From the NCBI GenBank assembly GCA_023261815.1, contig JALNKA010000002.1, positions 76,438 through 140,437 on the forward strand: a stretch of 64,000 nt of DNA, written 5' to 3'. The number at the start of each line of letters is the position of its first letter. Position 1 is the stretch's first letter. This DNA comes from Candidatus Wolframiiraptor sinensis. GTDB lineage: Archaea > Thermoproteota > Nitrososphaeria_A > Caldarchaeales > Wolframiiraptoraceae. The notes beneath the pieces were generated by a model. The model did no database searches, was not told the origin of the DNA, and saw only the letters and a program-made list of their open reading frames with translations. A program made the translations under genes and the position numbers. Shown here piece after piece: positions 4,951 through 64,000 of the stretch.

Positions 4951-5847
4951 TTAACGCGGGTAGACTTCCACGCCATTCGCGGGGTTTCGGCACTCCTTCT
5001 CGAACTCCTCCATCAGCCTTAGGGTTATTTTTCCGGCTCTACCATCCCCTATGATTCTTCCAGCAATCTTTGTTACCGGGAGGATCTCGGCTCCTGTTCC
5101 GGTCACGAATACCTCATCCGCCGTTATCAGCTCGAAGGGCGTTATCTCCCTTTCCTCGACCTGATATCCGAGCTTTCGGGCGAGCTTCATGGTGAAGGCC
5201 CTAGTTATCCCGGGCAGCATTCCAGTGGTCGGCGGCGGGGTTGCTATCACGCCGTTCTTGACCATGAATATATTCGTTGATGTTGTCTCGGCGACGAAGC
5301 CCCTCTCATCGAGCATGACCGCGTCATCGGCTCCTGCGCTTATCGCCTCGAGCTTCGCCAGAATGCTGTTCAAGTAGTTCAGGGATTTTATCTGATGCGT
5401 CGTCGCGTCAACCCTATCCCTCCTGACGGATGAGATTATCAGGGAGATCCCCCTCATCTTCGCCTCCCTGCTGTATAGTGTTAGAGCCGGCTCCGTGATG
5501 ATTATGACATTCGGGTTACTGCACTTCCTTGGATCTAGGCCGAGGTCTCCGATCCCGCGTGTAACCACGAGCCTTATGTATGCATCGCGCAGGCCATTTC
5601 TCCTCAGGGTCTCGACGACCGCCTCCACCATCTCATCTTTCGTCAATGGTATCTCGAGCATTATCGCCTTCGCCGAGTCGTATAGCCTATCGATGTGCTC
5701 TCTGAGCATGAAGACTACCCCATCGTATTCTCTTATCCCCTCGAAGACCCCGTCTCCGTAGAGGAATCCGTGATCGTAGACCGAGATCATGGCCCTGCTC
5801 TTGGGGTAATATTCCCCGTTAATGTAGACGAGAAGCTCGCCGCTCAT
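4951..5847 (-). CDS. ilvE: Branched-chain amino acid aminotransferase (fold type IV PLP enzyme)
   Basis: Class IV aminotransferase hallmarks (VFEGIR, TRG..DLGL, ETTSTNIF, VTGTGAE). Confidence 0.9.
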   Translation of the reverse strand: MSGELLVYINGEYYPKSRAMISVYDHGFLYGDGVFEGIREYDGVVFMLREHIDRLYDSAKAIMLEIPLTKDEMVEAVVETLRRNGLRDAYIRLVVTRGIGDLGLDPRKCSNPNVIIITEPALTLYSREAKMRGISLIISSVRRDRVDATTHQIKSLNYLNSILAKLEAISAGADDAVMLDERGFVAETTSTNIFMVKNGVIATPPPTTGMLPGITRAFTMKLARKLGYQVEEREITPFELITADEVFVTGTGAEILPVTKIAGRIIGDGRAGKITLRLMEEFEKECRNPANGVEVYPR

Positions 5848-5953: not shown

Positions 5954-6388
5954 ATGGTGGAGGAGCACTACGCGCTCGACCCGGTTGATCTCAAGATAAT
6001 AGAACTCCTGAGGAGGGATGGGAGAATGCCCTTCGTGGAGCTGGGGAAGAGGATCGGCTTATCCGAGGCGGCGGTTAGGCGGAGGGTGAAGATGCTCCAA
6101 GAGCGTGGGATACTCAGGAAGTTCACGATAGAGGTTGATGAGGGCTTTCAGGTGAGCGCGGTTATCTTCCTCCAGTTCGAGTCGAGCAGACTTCCGGGAG
6201 AGATAGTCGAGAAGATAGCGAAGGTGCCGGGCGTCCGGACGATCTACGAGCTGACCGGGAGATTCGACGCCATAGTGATAATCTCGGCATCCAAGATCTC
6301 GGAGCTTAATGAAAGAATAGACAGGATAAGAGCAATAGAGGGCGTGAGGAGCACGGAGACGGCGGTGGTTCTAAGGATCATAAGCTAG
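5954..6388 (+). CDS. lrp: Lrp/AsnC family transcriptional regulator
   Basis: N-terminal HTH (DLKIIELLRRDGRMPFVELGKRIGLSEAAVRRRV) plus a C-terminal RAM domain. Divergent from ilvE. Confidence 0.9.
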   Translation: MVEEHYALDPVDLKIIELLRRDGRMPFVELGKRIGLSEAAVRRRVKMLQERGILRKFTIEVDEGFQVSAVIFLQFESSRLPGEIVEKIAKVPGVRTIYELTGRFDAIVIISASKISELNERIDRIRAIEGVRSTETAVVLRIIS

Positions 6389-6561
6389 GGAGATAACGCT
6401 ATAAACCGCCTCGGGCGGAATCTTCCCGGAGAAGGATCGCATGGTAATATACGAGGAGCGCTGGGATCTCGGCAGGCTCGTGACATTCGTCCCGAACAAG
6501 AGGACGCCGATCTACAACTGGTTTTTTCTTTAAGGAAGGCTTCTCCCGGGAATTCGTCCAC

Positions 6562-7578
6562 ATGATGCTCCGGGAGTTCGATGCCGGTCCGGGCTCAATT
6601 ATCCTAGACCCGTTCCTAGGCTCGGGCACAACCCTACTGGCTTGCAAAGAGCTCGGCGTGGACGGCGTGGGCATCGACGTGGCCCCGCTCGCAGTCTTCG
6701 TGAGCAAAGTCAAGATAGCGGACTATGATCTGGAGGAGCTTAAGAGGGCCGCGAGCTGGCTCCTAAGCCAGCCATTCCAGAGGCCGGATCTCTCGGGCGT
6801 GAGCGGTTTCGTCAAGCAGTTCTTCCTAAAGCCATCGCTCGAGGACATAATCTTCTTCAGGGAGAAGATTCGCGAGATCGAGAACCCCCTCGTCAGGAAC
6901 TTCTTCACTCTGGCCCTCATGAACGCGGCGATGAAGGTTTCTCTCGCCTACAAGGATGGAGCGGTTTTAAAAGTGGTGAGGGATAAGCCTGTCCCACCCT
7001 TCAGGAAGTTCTTCAAGAGAATGGTCAAGAAGATGATAGGAGATTTGACGAGGCTGAGCTTCAAGCCATGCAGGCTGGAGGTGCATCTCGGCGACGCGAG
7101 GAAGATGGACTTCCTAGAAGATGAGATGTTCGACGCGATAATAACCTCGCCGCCATACCTCAACAAGATCGAGTACACGAAAGTTTACAGGATCGAGTAC
7201 GAGCTCTTTTTCGGCGACGTGAAGATAGATCCCATCAGGTCCTATCTCGGGCTGAATCCGAAGAACGTCGTGGACCAGTTTCCGGAGCTGAATCTTCCGG
7301 AGATCGCGAAAGCATACTTCCACGATATGAGGCTCTGCCTCGAGGAGATGTTCAGGGTCCTGAAGCCCGGCGGCAGGGTCGCGCTGGTCGTCGCCGGAGG
7401 AGCCTTCCCGGATAGGGTTGTCGAGTCGGATAAGCTCATCATGAAGCTCGCCGAGATCGTCGGGTTCGAGCCGGAGAGGCTGATCGCCGTGAACAAGAGG
7501 GTTGCGACAACACGGAGGGTGATAAAAATCGGAGAAGCGAGGGAGAGCATACTGATATTCTCGAAGCCGGCCCCCTAG
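6562..7578 (+). CDS. SAM-dependent methyltransferase, N6-adenine/N4-cytosine DNA MTase-like (DPFLGSGTT and SPPY motifs); possibly truncated or frameshifted at the N-terminus
   Basis: Motif I-like DPFLGSGTT near the N-terminus and motif IV-like SPPY about 170 aa later. An upstream ORF from ATG 6441 joins this frame if the T6 run at 6522-6527 is read as T5. No restriction-enzyme partner is evident. Confidence 0.6.
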   Translation: MMLREFDAGPGSIILDPFLGSGTTLLACKELGVDGVGIDVAPLAVFVSKVKIADYDLEELKRAASWLLSQPFQRPDLSGVSGFVKQFFLKPSLEDIIFFREKIREIENPLVRNFFTLALMNAAMKVSLAYKDGAVLKVVRDKPVPPFRKFFKRMVKKMIGDLTRLSFKPCRLEVHLGDARKMDFLEDEMFDAIITSPPYLNKIEYTKVYRIEYELFFGDVKIDPIRSYLGLNPKNVVDQFPELNLPEIAKAYFHDMRLCLEEMFRVLKPGGRVALVVAGGAFPDRVVESDKLIMKLAEIVGFEPERLIAVNKRVATTRRVIKIGEARESILIFSKPAP

Positions 7579-60079: not shown

Positions 60080-62263
60080 ATGCCGAGGGTTAAGAGGATT
60101 AGCGAGGTCTTGGAGATCCTTAGACAGAAGGATTGCATCCGGAACATAGGTACTATTGCTCATGTTGATCATGGTAAGACCACGACTACGGATAGCCTGC
60201 TCGCTGCCGCCGGCCTTCTCTCGCCCACGCTCGCCGGCAAGGCTCTCGCCCTCGATTACTTGGAGGAGGAGCAGCAGAGGCAGATGACCATCAAGGCTGC
60301 CAACATCTCCCTCTACTATGAGATGGACGGCAAGCCGTATATCATCAACATGATCGATACTCCGGGCCACGTTGATTTCAGCGGCAGGGTTACCCGGGCT
60401 CTCAGGGCTATTGACGGCGCGATAGTTGTCGTCGATGCCGTTGAGGGCGTCATGACTCAGACGGAGACCGTTGTCAGGCAGGCTCTCGAGGAGAGGGTCA
60501 GGCCAGTCCTCTACATAAATAAGATTGATAGGCTGATAAAGGAGCTTAGATTGACGCCGGAGAAAATTCAGGAGACCTTGGCGAGGATAGTGACCGAGGT
60601 TAATAGGCTCATCGAGATGTATGCCGAGCCGGAGTACCGGGAGAAGTGGAAGGTTAGCTTCCAGAATGGGACTGTTGCTATTGGGAGCGCTAAGGATAGG
60701 TGGGGATTCACGGTCCCCCAGGCGCAGAAGAAGGGGATAAAGTTCAGCGACGTCATGAAGGCCTTCCAGAACAACGACATCGCATGGCTTCAGGAAAACG
60801 CGCCACTTCACGAGGCGATACTGGAGATGGTCATCAATCATCATCCGCCGCCGCATGTCGCGCAGAAATATAGGATCCCGAAGATCTGGAAGGGCGATAT
60901 AGATAGCGATGTTGGACAGGCGATGCTCAACTGCGACGAGAATGGTCCTCCTGTGATGATCGTCACGGATGTCAAGGTGGATCCTCAGGCAGGCGTAGTC
61001 GCCACCGGGAGGCTTTTCAGCGGGACAGTCAAGGAGGGCGATATGATCAAGATCGTCGGCAGGAATATCGCGAAGAGGATCCAGCAGGTAGCGGTCTACA
61101 TGGGCCCGAACAGGGAGATTGTTGGAAGCTTGCCAGCTGGAAATATCCCGGCGCTCCTGGGAATAGATGAGGCGAGGGCGGGAGAGACGCTCTCGATAGT
61201 CGATATGGTGCCATTCGAGTCCCTGAGATATGTATCCGAGCCTGTTGTTACGATCTCTGTTGAGCCGAAGAATAGCAGGGATTTGCCAAAGCTCGTGGAC
61301 TTCCTGAATAAGCTCTCGATTGAGGATCCGACGCTCGTTACGACCGTAAGGCCCGAGACCGGGGAGTACCTAATAAGCGGCATGGGAACTCTCCACCTCG
61401 AGATAGCTCTCACGTGGATAGCTAAGGCGGGCATAGAGGTGATCGCTAGCAAGCCCATAATACTCTACAGGGAGACGGTCTCGAAGAGGGGCAGAGCTTT
61501 TGAGGGCAAATCGCCCAACAAGCATAACAGGATCTACCTACAGGTGGAGCCGCTGGAGCCCGAGATAATCGAGCTCATCAGAAAGGGCGAGATCTTCGAT
61601 GAGATGGATCGAAAGCAGGTGGCTAAGATCCTGAGAGATTATGGCTGGGATGCTGATATGGCTAGAAACGTCTGGTGCATAGATCCCAGAGGCAACATCC
61701 TCGTGGACATGACTAAGGGAATCCAGTACTTGCACGAGTCCAAGGCCCTTATAATCGCCGGCTTTCAGGACGTGATGGAGCGGGGTCCGCTGGCCGAGGA
61801 GCCGATGAGAGGCATCAAGGCGATCTTGGTGAACGCGGAGCTTCACGAGGACCCTGTTCATAGGGGTTATGCCCAGATAGTTCCTGCCACGAGGCGATCG
61901 CTTTACGCCAGCATTCTGAGCGCGGACCCGATTCTCCTAGAGCCGGTCCTGAAGATAGAGGTGAAGACGACCTCCGATCTGCTTGGAGCCGTAACCTCCG
62001 TCATATCGAGCAAAAGGGGGAGGATATTGAATGTCGCACAGCAGGAATACATAACCGTGGTGACGGGCGAGGTGCCAGCCGCCGAGACGTTCGATCTGAG
62101 CGAGGTGATGAGGAGCGCCACCATGGGCAAGGCCTTCTGGGCGACGGAGTTCTACGCTTGGAAGCCTGTTCCAGCATCCCTAAAAGACAAGATCATACAG
62201 GAGATTAGGAAGAGGAAAGGCCTGCCTCCAAAGATCCCCGAGATCTCGGACTTCGTCGAATAG
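60080..62263 (+). CDS. fusA: Translation elongation factor 2 (aEF-2)
   Basis: G domain (AHVDHGKTT, DTPGHVDF, NKIDR), domains II-V and the diphthamide-region pattern; 727 aa. Confidence 0.95.
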   Translation: MPRVKRISEVLEILRQKDCIRNIGTIAHVDHGKTTTTDSLLAAAGLLSPTLAGKALALDYLEEEQQRQMTIKAANISLYYEMDGKPYIINMIDTPGHVDFSGRVTRALRAIDGAIVVVDAVEGVMTQTETVVRQALEERVRPVLYINKIDRLIKELRLTPEKIQETLARIVTEVNRLIEMYAEPEYREKWKVSFQNGTVAIGSAKDRWGFTVPQAQKKGIKFSDVMKAFQNNDIAWLQENAPLHEAILEMVINHHPPPHVAQKYRIPKIWKGDIDSDVGQAMLNCDENGPPVMIVTDVKVDPQAGVVATGRLFSGTVKEGDMIKIVGRNIAKRIQQVAVYMGPNREIVGSLPAGNIPALLGIDEARAGETLSIVDMVPFESLRYVSEPVVTISVEPKNSRDLPKLVDFLNKLSIEDPTLVTTVRPETGEYLISGMGTLHLEIALTWIAKAGIEVIASKPIILYRETVSKRGRAFEGKSPNKHNRIYLQVEPLEPEIIELIRKGEIFDEMDRKQVAKILRDYGWDADMARNVWCIDPRGNILVDMTKGIQYLHESKALIIAGFQDVMERGPLAEEPMRGIKAILVNAELHEDPVHRGYAQIVPATRRSLYASILSADPILLEPVLKIEVKTTSDLLGAVTSVISSKRGRILNVAQQEYITVVTGEVPAAETFDLSEVMRSATMGKAFWATEFYAWKPVPASLKDKIIQEIRKRKGLPPKIPEISDFVE

Positions 62264-62335
62264 TCCTAGAAGCACTTTCACCCAACCCCCCAAAATATAT
62301 CCTATAGGCCGCGGCAGAAATTCTCCGGAGAAGGG

Positions 62336-62875
62336 GTGCTGGAGAGGTCGCCCGGTGGCCGCGAGATCAGGCTGATCTGCAAACTTCAGCCAGGCAGCCG
62401 GAGAGTAGATGCTCTCATGAGAGCTCTAGAGGCCGCCGGCTACACCATTGAGGGAAATAGCATTTTGAGGGGCTCGCTTAAAGCCGAGTTCAAGGCGGCC
62501 AGCCTCTCGGGCGATGAGGCGATTATCCTCGTTAAGTCTGCGGAGGCCTATGATCTCAAGGACCTCCTAAGCCTCCTCGCCAGGGAGTGCTGGTACATTG
62601 ACGTTTACTACCACTTGAGGGGTGGGGATGCTTGGGCGGCCGCTAAGAGCCTCAAGATGCAGCTTCCAGGTGATGGCGTTTACAGGTCGAGCGTGAAGCT
62701 TTCAGGCGTGGAGCTTAGGGTTGATGCCTACCCGGGGCACGGTGCTTTGACGATCTCCTATAGAGCTGGCTGGAGGGAGGTTAATTCGGGCGCTGTCACG
62801 AGAATTCATGAGAAAATTCTCGGAGCGGGGGGCGGGAGAAGCATATTCAGCAGGCTTATGGGGTGGGTTAAATGA
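62336..62875 (+). CDS. Hypothetical protein, translationally coupled to crenactin (candidate arcadin-like partner)
   Basis: 179-aa ORF whose TGA stop (62873-62875) overlaps the crenactin ATG (62872-62874) in an ATGA arrangement. No recognisable motif. Confidence 0.4.
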   Translation: MLERSPGGREIRLICKLQPGSRRVDALMRALEAAGYTIEGNSILRGSLKAEFKAASLSGDEAIILVKSAEAYDLKDLLSLLARECWYIDVYYHLRGGDAWAAAKSLKMQLPGDGVYRSSVKLSGVELRVDAYPGHGALTISYRAGWREVNSGAVTRIHEKILGAGGGRSIFSRLMGWVK

Positions 62876-64000
62876 GCGAGGAGTATAAGCGGGAGCACGT
62901 CTTCGGGCTGGATTATGGGACGAGCGACTTCAAGTTCGGGCCCATAGTACTGGGAGAGACGCCTGAGATCGTCGAGAACAGGGGCTACTTCATCGATAGA
63001 AGCTCCCTCATGTCGAGGATAATGGGCGTTAATAGGGAGATCGTCGTGGGCAGGGATATTCCGAGGTTCCTAGAGTCCCGCGAGGACCTGGTGGAGCGGA
63101 TGGTCTACCCGATGCGGAACGGCGTCATAGCGAAGGACGATGAGCGGGCGTGGAAAGTCATAAAGGAGCTCACAAAGTACGCTTTAGAAAGCTTCGCCCC
63201 TCCCGACGAGGAGTTCGAGGGCTTCTACGTCGTCGCGAGCATCTCAGTCGTCTCGCCGAGATACATGTACGAGAGGCTCTTCGAGATCTTCCGAGAGCTC
63301 AATCGCGAGAGGGTGCTGGTTAAGGCCGCTACCATAATTCCTCAGCCTCTGGCGGTCGCGATCGCTCAAAAGACCCCGACATGCACGGTGGTCGAGTCCG
63401 GCCACGGGAACACCCAGATATGCCCGATCTCCATGTATCCCGTGAGGAATGCTGTTATAGCCTTGAATAGGGGTGGAGCGGCCGCGAACGTGCTCACGAT
63501 GGAGATACTAAAGGATGCGGGCTATGGCGACCTAGCCAAGGAGGAGAGCTTCGTGAGGCTCGTCAAGGAGAAAATAGGGCTCATTCCGAGGAACCTGGAT
63601 GAGGCGATCAGATACGCGAGGAGCAATCCAGAGAAGATCAAGGTCTCGCTGAAGATCCCGGGGACGAGGATAAAATTAGTCTTAGATGACATGGCGTGGA
63701 CCAGGTTCCTGATAGGCGAGTTCGTCTTCAATCCGGGCCACGAGATCTTCCAGAGTTACTTCACGCGTGGAATGCCGAAGCCCAGCGATGTAAAGCTCGG
63801 GGACACATACTTTTATGGCATGATGGATATGGCGGAGGCGGTAATAGCATCGATCGAGAAGTGCTCTATCGAGCTTCAGCCCCACCTATACTCCAGAATA
63901 CTCCTATCGGGCGGCAACTTCAGCTGGAACATCCCCGAGGGTCTCGAGACCGTGGCCGTTAGAGCCGATGAGAAGTTGAAGCAGCTCCTCCTGGAGAAGG
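62872..64000 (+). CDS. Crenactin (archaeal actin homolog), partial; continues beyond window end
   Basis: Actin-fold phosphate-1 motif GLDYGTSDFKFG, an ESGHG-like connect region and LSGGN phosphate-2. The frame is open to position 64000. Not in the ORF track because no stop occurs in the window. Confidence 0.8.
   Translation, partial: MSEEYKREHVFGLDYGTSDFKFGPIVLGETPEIVENRGYFIDRSSLMSRIMGVNREIVVGRDIPRFLESREDLVERMVYPMRNGVIAKDDERAWKVIKELTKYALESFAPPDEEFEGFYVVASISVVSPRYMYERLFEIFRELNRERVLVKAATIIPQPLAVAIAQKTPTCTVVESGHGNTQICPISMYPVRNAVIALNRGGAAANVLTMEILKDAGYGDLAKEESFVRLVKEKIGLIPRNLDEAIRYARSNPEKIKVSLKIPGTRIKLVLDDMAWTRFLIGEFVFNPGHEIFQSYFTRGMPKPSDVKLGDTYFYGMMDMAEAVIASIEKCSIELQPHLYSRILLSGGNFSWNIPEGLETVAVRADEKLKQLLLEK

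Follow-up and report, generated by a model that had tools for sequence, protein, structure and literature searches.

Few prokaryotic proteins are structurally as close to eukaryotic F-actin as crenactin, which in Thermoproteales is encoded in the arcade cluster, reportedly described by Ettema et al. in 2011. To our knowledge, arcadin-2 is the only regulator of crenactin that is understood, and we know of no account of how the filaments are positioned or attached. The genes of the cluster lie in the order arcadin-1 – crenactin – arcadin-2 – arcadin-3 – arcadin-4 (Izoré et al. 2016, PMC5173319). The C-terminal peptide of arcadin-2 has been shown experimentally to bind a hydrophobic groove on crenactin, while arcadin-1 assembles into dimers or octamers and has a dissociation constant of 15 µM for crenactin (Izoré et al. 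2016, PMC5173319). The locus described here lies at the 3' end of a 64,000-nucleotide (64-kb) stretch of DNA, termed the window throughout, from contig JALNKA010000002.1 (positions 76,438 to 140,437, forward strand) of Candidatus Wolframiiraptor sinensis. In it, a crenactin gene is directly preceded by an open reading frame (ORF; 62336-62875) named X in this report. What is new is a reduced arcade cluster whose first component is non-homologous to arcadin-1. X is an orphan, lineage-specific to Wolframiiraptoraceae, and probably a new accessory protein of the crenactin cytoskeleton. Comparative sequence evidence points to X as a direct structural partner that would bind crenactin and be co-produced with it through translational coupling, a reading to which we give a probability of roughly 0.55. 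The two genes are as follows.

62336-62875, + strand: X, a 179-residue orphan protein with a GTG start and a TGA stop at 62873-62875 (ORF list, homologues, model, substitution rates).
62872-64000, + strand: crenactin, N-terminal 376 of about 422 residues (4cj7, NF053560, 422-residue orthologues).

An earlier note on this DNA had taken the downstream ORF for crenactin from its actin-fold phosphate-binding loops, and crenactin it is. The partial ORF amounts to 376 codons up to the window end in the ORF list and its translation. In a comparison with PDB sequences its residues 2-375 align to the crenactin of Pyrobaculum calidifontis (4cj7/5ly3/5mw1) with E=1.2e-101, and eukaryotic actins match at only about 1e-10. 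The NCBIfam model NF053560 'crenactin' is matched over positions 1-375 of 422 with E=3.5e-156 and 520 bits; this falls short of the full-length cut-off of 630 bits, since the window ends some 46 residues before the C-terminus. The nucleotide-binding motifs of the actin fold, DYGTSDFKFG, ESGHGNTQ and LSGGNFSW (phosphate-1, phosphate-2 and adenosine), are all present and align to those of crenactin. Full-length orthologues in four related loci (L001-L004) are 422 residues long and 90-92% identical to the fragment in the window.

The note had drawn its comparison from Thermoproteales; the host belongs elsewhere. The closest crenactins (90-92%) come from metagenome-assembled genomes (MAGs) named Candidatus Wolframiiraptor or uncultured Nitrososphaeria/'Aigarchaeota', and entries of the X family, always annotated 'hypothetical protein', are assigned for example to Ca. 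Geocrenenecus dongiae or 'Nitrososphaerota archaeon'. The relatives of crenactin and of X therefore place the window in a Wolframiiraptor-like member of Caldarchaeales, not in Thermoproteales.

X is a real gene under purifying selection. When the window is compared with loci L002-L004, nucleotide differences in X are concentrated at third codon positions, and the ratio of non-synonymous to synonymous substitution rates (dN/dS) is 0.17-0.21, against about 0.05 for crenactin. X evolves three to four times faster than its neighbour: pairs whose crenactins are 90%, 75% and 71% identical have X proteins that are about 70%, 39% and 32% identical, respectively. The GTG start is backed by alignment to relatives, where it is conserved after a purine-rich GGAGAAGG, and by conservation of the protein from about residue 10 onwards.

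That X carries no recognisable motif, as had been remarked, was borne out. Sequence and profile searches of Pfam (E<=1), NCBIfam and the PDB returned no meaningful match, none of the 23 aligned family members matches Pfam at E<=1, and the Pfam and PDB profile searches gave no similarity to any DNA-binding family; nor was a publication describing the gene found in the literature. A word-indexed search of 5.8 billion proteins yielded 11 homologues. When 1.84 billion cluster representatives were searched exhaustively with a profile, 16 family representatives at 50% identity emerged, all of 130-179 residues save one fragment of 64, and the family was found in no other archaea among those 1.84e9 representatives. 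With only 16 representatives, the distribution of X is therefore nested inside that of crenactin.

Within this family the synteny is strict. The X profile matches 17 of the 44 crenactin loci taken from GTDB species genomes, each time as the ORF directly 5' of crenactin on the same strand, and the same order recurs in 7 further contexts, which include the most distant member (P0144, Ca. Geocrenenecus; 24% identity). X thus adjoins crenactin in 24 loci of Wolframiiraptoraceae (Caldarchaeales/"Aigarchaeota") and in the window, whatever the upstream neighbour, and its hidden Markov model (HMM) has no second match within the 64-kb window or in any locus scanned. The proposal of the earlier note hung on the crenactin match and on the upkeep of X beside crenactin in related genomes, and both have held.

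Such adjacency might have another origin. X could be a small enzyme or ligand-binding protein with a function unrelated to the cytoskeleton, co-transcribed with crenactin through conserved gene order; the run of EF-2, X, crenactin, arcadin-2, MBL-fold hydrolase and dCTP deaminase is indeed syntenic as a whole. We consider this unlikely. In 25 contexts X is never away from crenactin, whereas EF-2 switches strand or becomes separated from the cluster, and so confined a family would be unusual for a housekeeping enzyme. The junction between the two genes is also conserved.

62860-62875, + strand: coupling junction, with the Shine-Dalgarno (SD)-like GGGGTGGG (62860-62867) in the last codons of X, followed by ATGA (62872-62875) (conservation).
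62327-62335, + strand: a purine-rich, SD-like stretch, GGAGAAGGG, abutting the GTG of X (read from the sequence; putative role).

X ends ...GGG TGG GTT AAA TGA, sharing a 4-nt ATGA with the crenactin ATG at 62872-62875. This overlap, and the co-translation that it implies, had already been pointed out; the overlap is real, and overlap or abutment recurs in relatives. The sequence (G/A)GGTGG followed by A(A/G)ATGAGCGAGGA is kept at 14 of 16 related X/crenactin junctions, with 5 nt between GGTGG and ATGA. The two exceptions are an abutting TAG-ATG and a junction with a 2-nt spacer. GGTGG is a core match to the archaeal SD consensus, and because of this match the ribosome-binding site of crenactin appears to be encoded inside the last codons of X; the C-terminal Gly/Arg-Trp of X would therefore be dual-coded. 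The conserved ATGA overlap with its embedded GGTGG supports translational coupling of X and crenactin, and it is a further point against a function of X unrelated to the cytoskeleton. The SD-like stretch in front of X itself is kept in close relatives as GGAGAAGG, GGGGGAGA or GAGGGAGA.

The 3' side of the cluster can be followed in relatives, beyond the end of the window. There, a gene of about 230 codons overlaps or abuts the crenactin stop, and its product ends ...LPSYL(V/R)DNPW(V/I)EILSRRE (L001-L014; e.g. L002 7259-7951). The arcade loci used for comparison were those of P. calidifontis (L045), T. tenax (L046), V. moutnovskia (L047) and T. pendens (L048); in Thermoproteales the C-termini of arcadin-2 read ...ENEWVKILRSKR, ...NNPWVDVLRKK... 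and ...DNPWLDFLSRRR.... A tblastn search with Vulcanisaeta arcadin-2 matches the downstream ORF of the relatives at E=1e-8 to 1e-18, and its N-domain aligns to arcadin-2 in hhalign with a probability of 97% (E=7.5e-11). The gene 3' of crenactin is judged from these comparisons to be a true arcadin-2 homologue. Conservation is higher in the LPSYLxDNPWVEILSRRE peptide than in the remainder of this homologue. This homologue is found 3' of crenactin in both Caldarchaeales and Bathyarchaeia, and arcadin-2 is therefore not confined to Thermoproteales. An MBL-fold hydrolase and a dCTP deaminase follow it in the relatives.

The earlier expectation of further arcadins downstream thus stands for arcadin-2 and fails for arcadin-3 and arcadin-4: a tblastn search found nothing significant for arcadin-3 or for the SMC-like (SMC/Rad50-like) arcadin-4, either in the 64-kb window or in the 6 kb that follow crenactin in Caldarchaeales loci. 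Since arcadin-2 is present and arcadin-3 and -4 were not found, the local system is a reduced arcade cluster, X–crenactin–arcadin-2; and as arcadin-2, encoded after crenactin, is a crenactin binder, X sits in a cytoskeletal operon. The cluster shares with the arcade of Thermoproteales a central crenactin, a small gene 5' on the same strand and a 3' arcadin-2 ending NPW(V/I)xIL(S/R)(R/K). It differs in that X stands where Thermoproteales have arcadin-1, in that Thermoproteales possess arcadin-3 and arcadin-4, and in its host, which belongs to Caldarchaeales.

In most Wolframiiraptoraceae the cluster is preceded by aEF-2 (60080-62263 in the window), the orientation of which flips: it shares the strand of the cluster in the window and in L001-L009 but lies opposite to it in L011, L014, L049 and L058. 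A cupin gene lies between aEF-2 and the cluster in L014, L049 and L058. Given these flips, X–crenactin–arcadin-2 is the conserved unit.

The earlier note had offered X as either an arcadin homologue or a lineage-specific partner. The first half fails on sequence, profile and fold similarity to arcadin-1 to -4; the second is favoured by the comparative evidence and by synteny. X is not an arcadin and shares only a genomic slot with arcadin-1. The comparison that the note had proposed gave hhalign probabilities of about 1% or less: 0.2% and 1.0% against arcadin-1, 0.1% against arcadin-2 (the X tail has no NPW motif), 1.1% against arcadin-3 and 0.1% against arcadin-4. Homology to arcadin-2, -3 or -4, or to the 110-residue product of the gene 5' of Vulcanisaeta crenactin, was rejected at hhalign probabilities <=1.1%.

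Arcadin-1, a protein of 111-113 residues (Pfam PF18653) with a solved structure (5LY5), calls for closer comparison. It is encoded directly 5' of crenactin in Pyrobaculum and Thermoproteus loci, and X might on grounds of position and orientation be regarded as a very diverged homologue, the more so as a secondary citation places arcadin-1 in Caldarchaeales (PMC9723716). However, beyond the slot and the strand the two have nothing in common. PF18653 is unmatched in the 23 family members (E<=1), and the arcadin-1 HMM has matches only in Thermoproteales loci, with none in the window or in any locus of Caldarchaeales or Bathyarchaeia. Arcadin-1 has 113 residues against 179 in X, an isoelectric point (pI) of 4.5 against 9.5, and a β/OB-like architecture with a disordered insert against a predicted two-lobed α/β one; the model of X lacks the fold of 5LY5, whose OB-like core is small, rich in β-structure and centrally interrupted by a disordered insert. 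As a control, an AlphaFold2 model of arcadin-1 gave a long β-hairpin and three strands around a low-confidence insert, and in Foldseek it retrieved 5ly5 (E=8e-10; template modelling (TM) score 0.91 on the target), followed by weak matches to OB-fold SSB/PriB. In the same library 5ly5 is outside the top 50 matches of X. Homology of X to arcadin-1 is extremely improbable and essentially refuted. The role of arcadin-1, a moderate-affinity crenactin binder of unknown function, can be carried over to X by analogy only.

Two parts of X can be told apart in its AlphaFold2 model.

62357-62587 and 62588-62821, + strand: globular domain of X, residues about 8-162, predicted as two β-α-β(3-4)-α halves (AlphaFold2).
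62822-62872, + strand: C-terminal tail of X (residues 163-179, GAGGGRSIFSRLMGWVK), in which a linker rich in Gly, modelled with low confidence, leads into a predicted short basic amphipathic helix (model confidence, family pattern).

The model has a mean predicted local distance difference test score (pLDDT) of 85.7 and a predicted TM score (pTM) of 0.82. It is an α/β protein with the order β-α-β-β-β-β-α / β-α-β-β-β-α-α, followed by a disordered tail in which residues 165-179 have a pLDDT below 50; hhalign detected no internal sequence repeat or duplication. The conserved strands RECWYxDVYYHLRG (83-96) and ALTISYRxGW (137-146) are predicted neighbours, and D60/E61 are conserved as well. Alternate strand positions define a hydrophobic face (W86, V90, Y92, L94 and Y142) and a polar/aromatic one (C85, Y87, D89, Y91, H93, R95, T139, S141 and R143). 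The latter, judging by the strand pattern, is probably an exposed functional surface. If X is a partner of crenactin, it would be this sheet face, together with E61, that docks on the filament protein. If it were instead a small enzyme, the invariant E61, C85, Y87, D89, Y91, H93, R95, S141 and R143 would equally suit an active or ligand site.

Foldseek searches with the model returned only weak and heterogeneous matches (TM <=0.41), to DMGDH and LigM folate domains, AdoMetDC, TBP, ACT pairs and CYTH. The AdoMetDC, folate-binding and CYTH matches could be taken to favour an enzymatic function, but CYTH reaches a TM of 0.16-0.20 only, no match exceeds 0.41, and the ExExK motif of CYTH is not present. 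Identity as a CYTH/triphosphate-tunnel enzyme was rejected on the same TM values and on the N-terminal strand, which reads (I/L)(R/K)LxC(K/R) and not ExExK. A viral library gave equally weak matches, among which TBP-like proteins (a B263R homologue, TFIID) recur.

The TBP matches raise a different alternative, in which X would be a nucleic-acid-binding adaptor or regulator with a TBP-like saddle on DNA or RNA. It might then link the chromosome to crenactin filaments, as ParR/AlfB-like adaptors do, or autoregulate its own operon. The predicted order of elements in X equals the duplicated β-α-β4-α of the TBP-like fold, and 1vol_B, 1tbp_A and 4rod_B recur with the viral proteins among the weak Foldseek matches. 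The likeness does not extend to a real superposition: at E of about 1e-3, the TM to TBP is 0.23-0.25 and the root-mean-square deviation (rmsd) exceeds 10 Å, and there is neither sequence similarity to TBP nor an internal repeat. Whole X proteins are basic, with a pI of 8.5-9.7 (9.5 for X itself), as a nucleic-acid binder might be, but the globular core ranges from 5.5 to 9.1 and is not consistently basic, the charge coming mostly from the tail. The lack of any sequence or profile similarity to DNA-binding families also speaks against this function.

Autoregulation would act through a conserved element upstream of the gene.

62273-62300, + strand: promoter-like element CACTTTCACCCAACCCCCCAAAATATAT (conserved block, 14 aligned loci).
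62273-62280, + strand: upstream box CACTTTCA, part of the promoter-like element.
62292-62300, + strand: TATA-like AAAATATAT, part of the promoter-like element, 36 nt before the GTG of X.

The arrangement CACTTTCA-N11-12-AAAATATAT, of about 28 nt, is the sole conserved block in an otherwise divergent spacer 5' of X in the 14 aligned loci, and it is present in every one of them irrespective of the upstream gene (among others, L002 5402-5429 and L011 5415-5442). It occurs once per locus, always 5' of X, and is unique within the 64-kb window, where 0.02 copies are expected by chance. Rfam has no family that matches the block, and no bacterial-type promoter was found for the conserved intergenic region. 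Intrinsic terminators were represented by a single similar sequence, on the minus strand and no more frequent than chance allows; both results are usual in an archaeon. From what is known of archaeal TATA boxes, the element is best read as the putative TATA-box promoter of the operon with an upstream regulatory or transcription-factor box, and it could control expression of the cytoskeleton. A variant, CACTTTCGacaaaCTCTCcgttTTATAC, is retained in Terraquivivens (L019 about 5215-5245), ahead of an arcadin-2 gene that stands first there in place of X. A conserved operator-like box beside the TATA box of the operon is what an autoregulator acting via the CACTTTCA–TATA element would need, but the retention of the box in Terraquivivens, at a locus without X, argues that X is not needed for the element. 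Taken with the fold comparison, this makes a nucleic-acid-binding role very unlikely.

How X might act as a partner of crenactin is suggested by its tail. Most members of the family carry, after a G/S-rich linker, the pattern [GS]ΦΦxx[KR]ΦΦ[GR]Wx[KR], with a hydrophobic moment of 0.5-0.9 and a net charge of +2 to +6. The membrane-targeting helices of MinD and FtsA are likewise borne on a globular domain by a flexible linker and form a basic amphipathic helix of 10-12 residues at the extreme C-terminus. Computed alike, the hydrophobic moment and charge of the X tail are comparable to those of the FtsA and MinD helices and of the groove-binding helix of arcadin-2. The tail nevertheless has no homology to either the MinD/FtsA helices or the arcadin-2 peptide, part of its motif is constrained by the SD, and one sub-branch is tail-less. 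The invariant C-terminal Trp is accordingly not to be read as a motif of the protein alone, the G/R-W codons being those of the crenactin SD (GGTGG).

The proposed sequence of events begins with an operon of three genes, X–crenactin–arcadin-2, in which X comes first and which would have its own conserved TATA-type promoter. X would be translationally coupled to crenactin and, although non-homologous to the arcadins, would fill the slot held by arcadin-1 in Thermoproteales. After docking of the polar/aromatic face on crenactin, the Gly-rich linker and basic amphipathic helix might anchor the complex at the membrane in the manner of MinD/FtsA; alternatively, the tail might insert into the hydrophobic groove of crenactin, as the C-terminal helix of arcadin-2 does. 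That the tail tethers the complex to the membrane or plugs the groove is put forward tentatively, the odds being against it. Several observations weigh against a partnership of X and crenactin or against this use of the tail. The cluster is embedded in housekeeping synteny (EF-2 5'; MBL-fold hydrolase and dCTP deaminase 3'), and adjacency could reflect gene order. The recurring weak 3Di matches to TBP-like proteins fit nucleic-acid binding too. Terraquivivens, a member of the same family, has no X at the locus, which means that crenactin can function without X in some relatives. The tail is not present in the Geocrenenecus-like branch, and the C-terminal G/R-W is at least partly explained by the overlapping SD, both of which weaken a mechanism based on the tail. 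Finally, PMC9723716, citing Bernander et al. 2011, has Caldarchaeales encode an 'arcadin-1', a label that the upstream gene of Caldiarchaeum may have received by position.

The slot upstream of crenactin appears to be related, if distantly, in Bathyarchaeia. In three loci (L015, L016 and L038) it holds an ORF of 178-241 codons, which hhalign aligns to X over 89 columns with a probability of 65% (E=6e-5), pairing CWYxDVYYHLRG with FGYCDLSCSLRGD and YPxxxALTIS with YPRRGMLNLL. In the search with the X HMM this ORF ranks top among ORFs outside the family, with non-significant E-values. A metagenome scan aimed at the link returned near-identical sequences only and added no diversity. The Bathyarchaeia ORF is a probable distant homologue of X, and as these loci carry arcadin-2 3' of crenactin, their order is X-like–crenactin–arcadin-2. 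This would extend the proposal to an exchangeable 'adaptor slot' across TACK archaea, occupied by arcadin-1 in Thermoproteales, by X in Wolframiiraptoraceae and by an X-like protein in Bathyarchaeia. In its fullest form, X would be a new actin-binding fold and the adaptor by which Caldarchaeales attach crenactin filaments to the membrane or nucleate them there, with a diverged form in Bathyarchaeia; so extended, the idea is speculative and more probably wrong than right.

A second archaeal order, and probably Bathyarchaeia too, thus keeps a minimal crenactin–arcadin-2 core with a different, tightly coupled upstream protein, and the findings suggest that actin accessory factors have been swapped in and out among TACK archaea. 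X is a small (179-residue), well-folding candidate regulator or anchor of crenactin from a thermophile, and together with crenactin and arcadin-2 it makes a defined three-protein system for reconstitution in vitro. The result is incremental and not paradigm-changing, unless binding and an anchoring role of X are confirmed.

Elsewhere the slot has other occupants. In Ca. Terraquivivens ruidianensis the arcadin-2-like gene (L019 5299-5958) lies 5' and not 3' of crenactin, and nothing homologous to X is present in the 13 kb of the locus. The same family thus also contains the cluster in a rearranged form of two genes. A protein of about 200 residues resembling MGMT/Ogt (PCHRVV motif) is encoded 5' of crenactin in Korarchaeia-like and other Thermoproteota MAGs (L025-L027, L032-L036 and L043), its ORF ending 7-17 nt inside crenactin in most and about 30-60 nt before it in the others. 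This is another recurrent, unrelated occupant of the slot. As homologues of X, the MGMT-like genes of the Korarchaeia-like/'Thermoproteota' MAGs, the arcadin-2 of Terraquivivens and a vWA-like gene (L023) were all rejected.

Two further features were seen in Bathyarchaeia. A conserved Cys-rich ORF of 88-100 codons overlaps the end of the arcadin-2-like gene (L015 7897-8163; L038 7870-8172); its product, with the motif C..C..KFI(K/R)RY..C, is possibly a zinc ribbon and may be a fourth member of the cluster. In L038, from a Bathyarchaeota MAG, crenactin is split into ORFs of 276 and 123 codons (5974-6804 and 6890-7261), which is a frameshift, a pseudogene or an assembly error.

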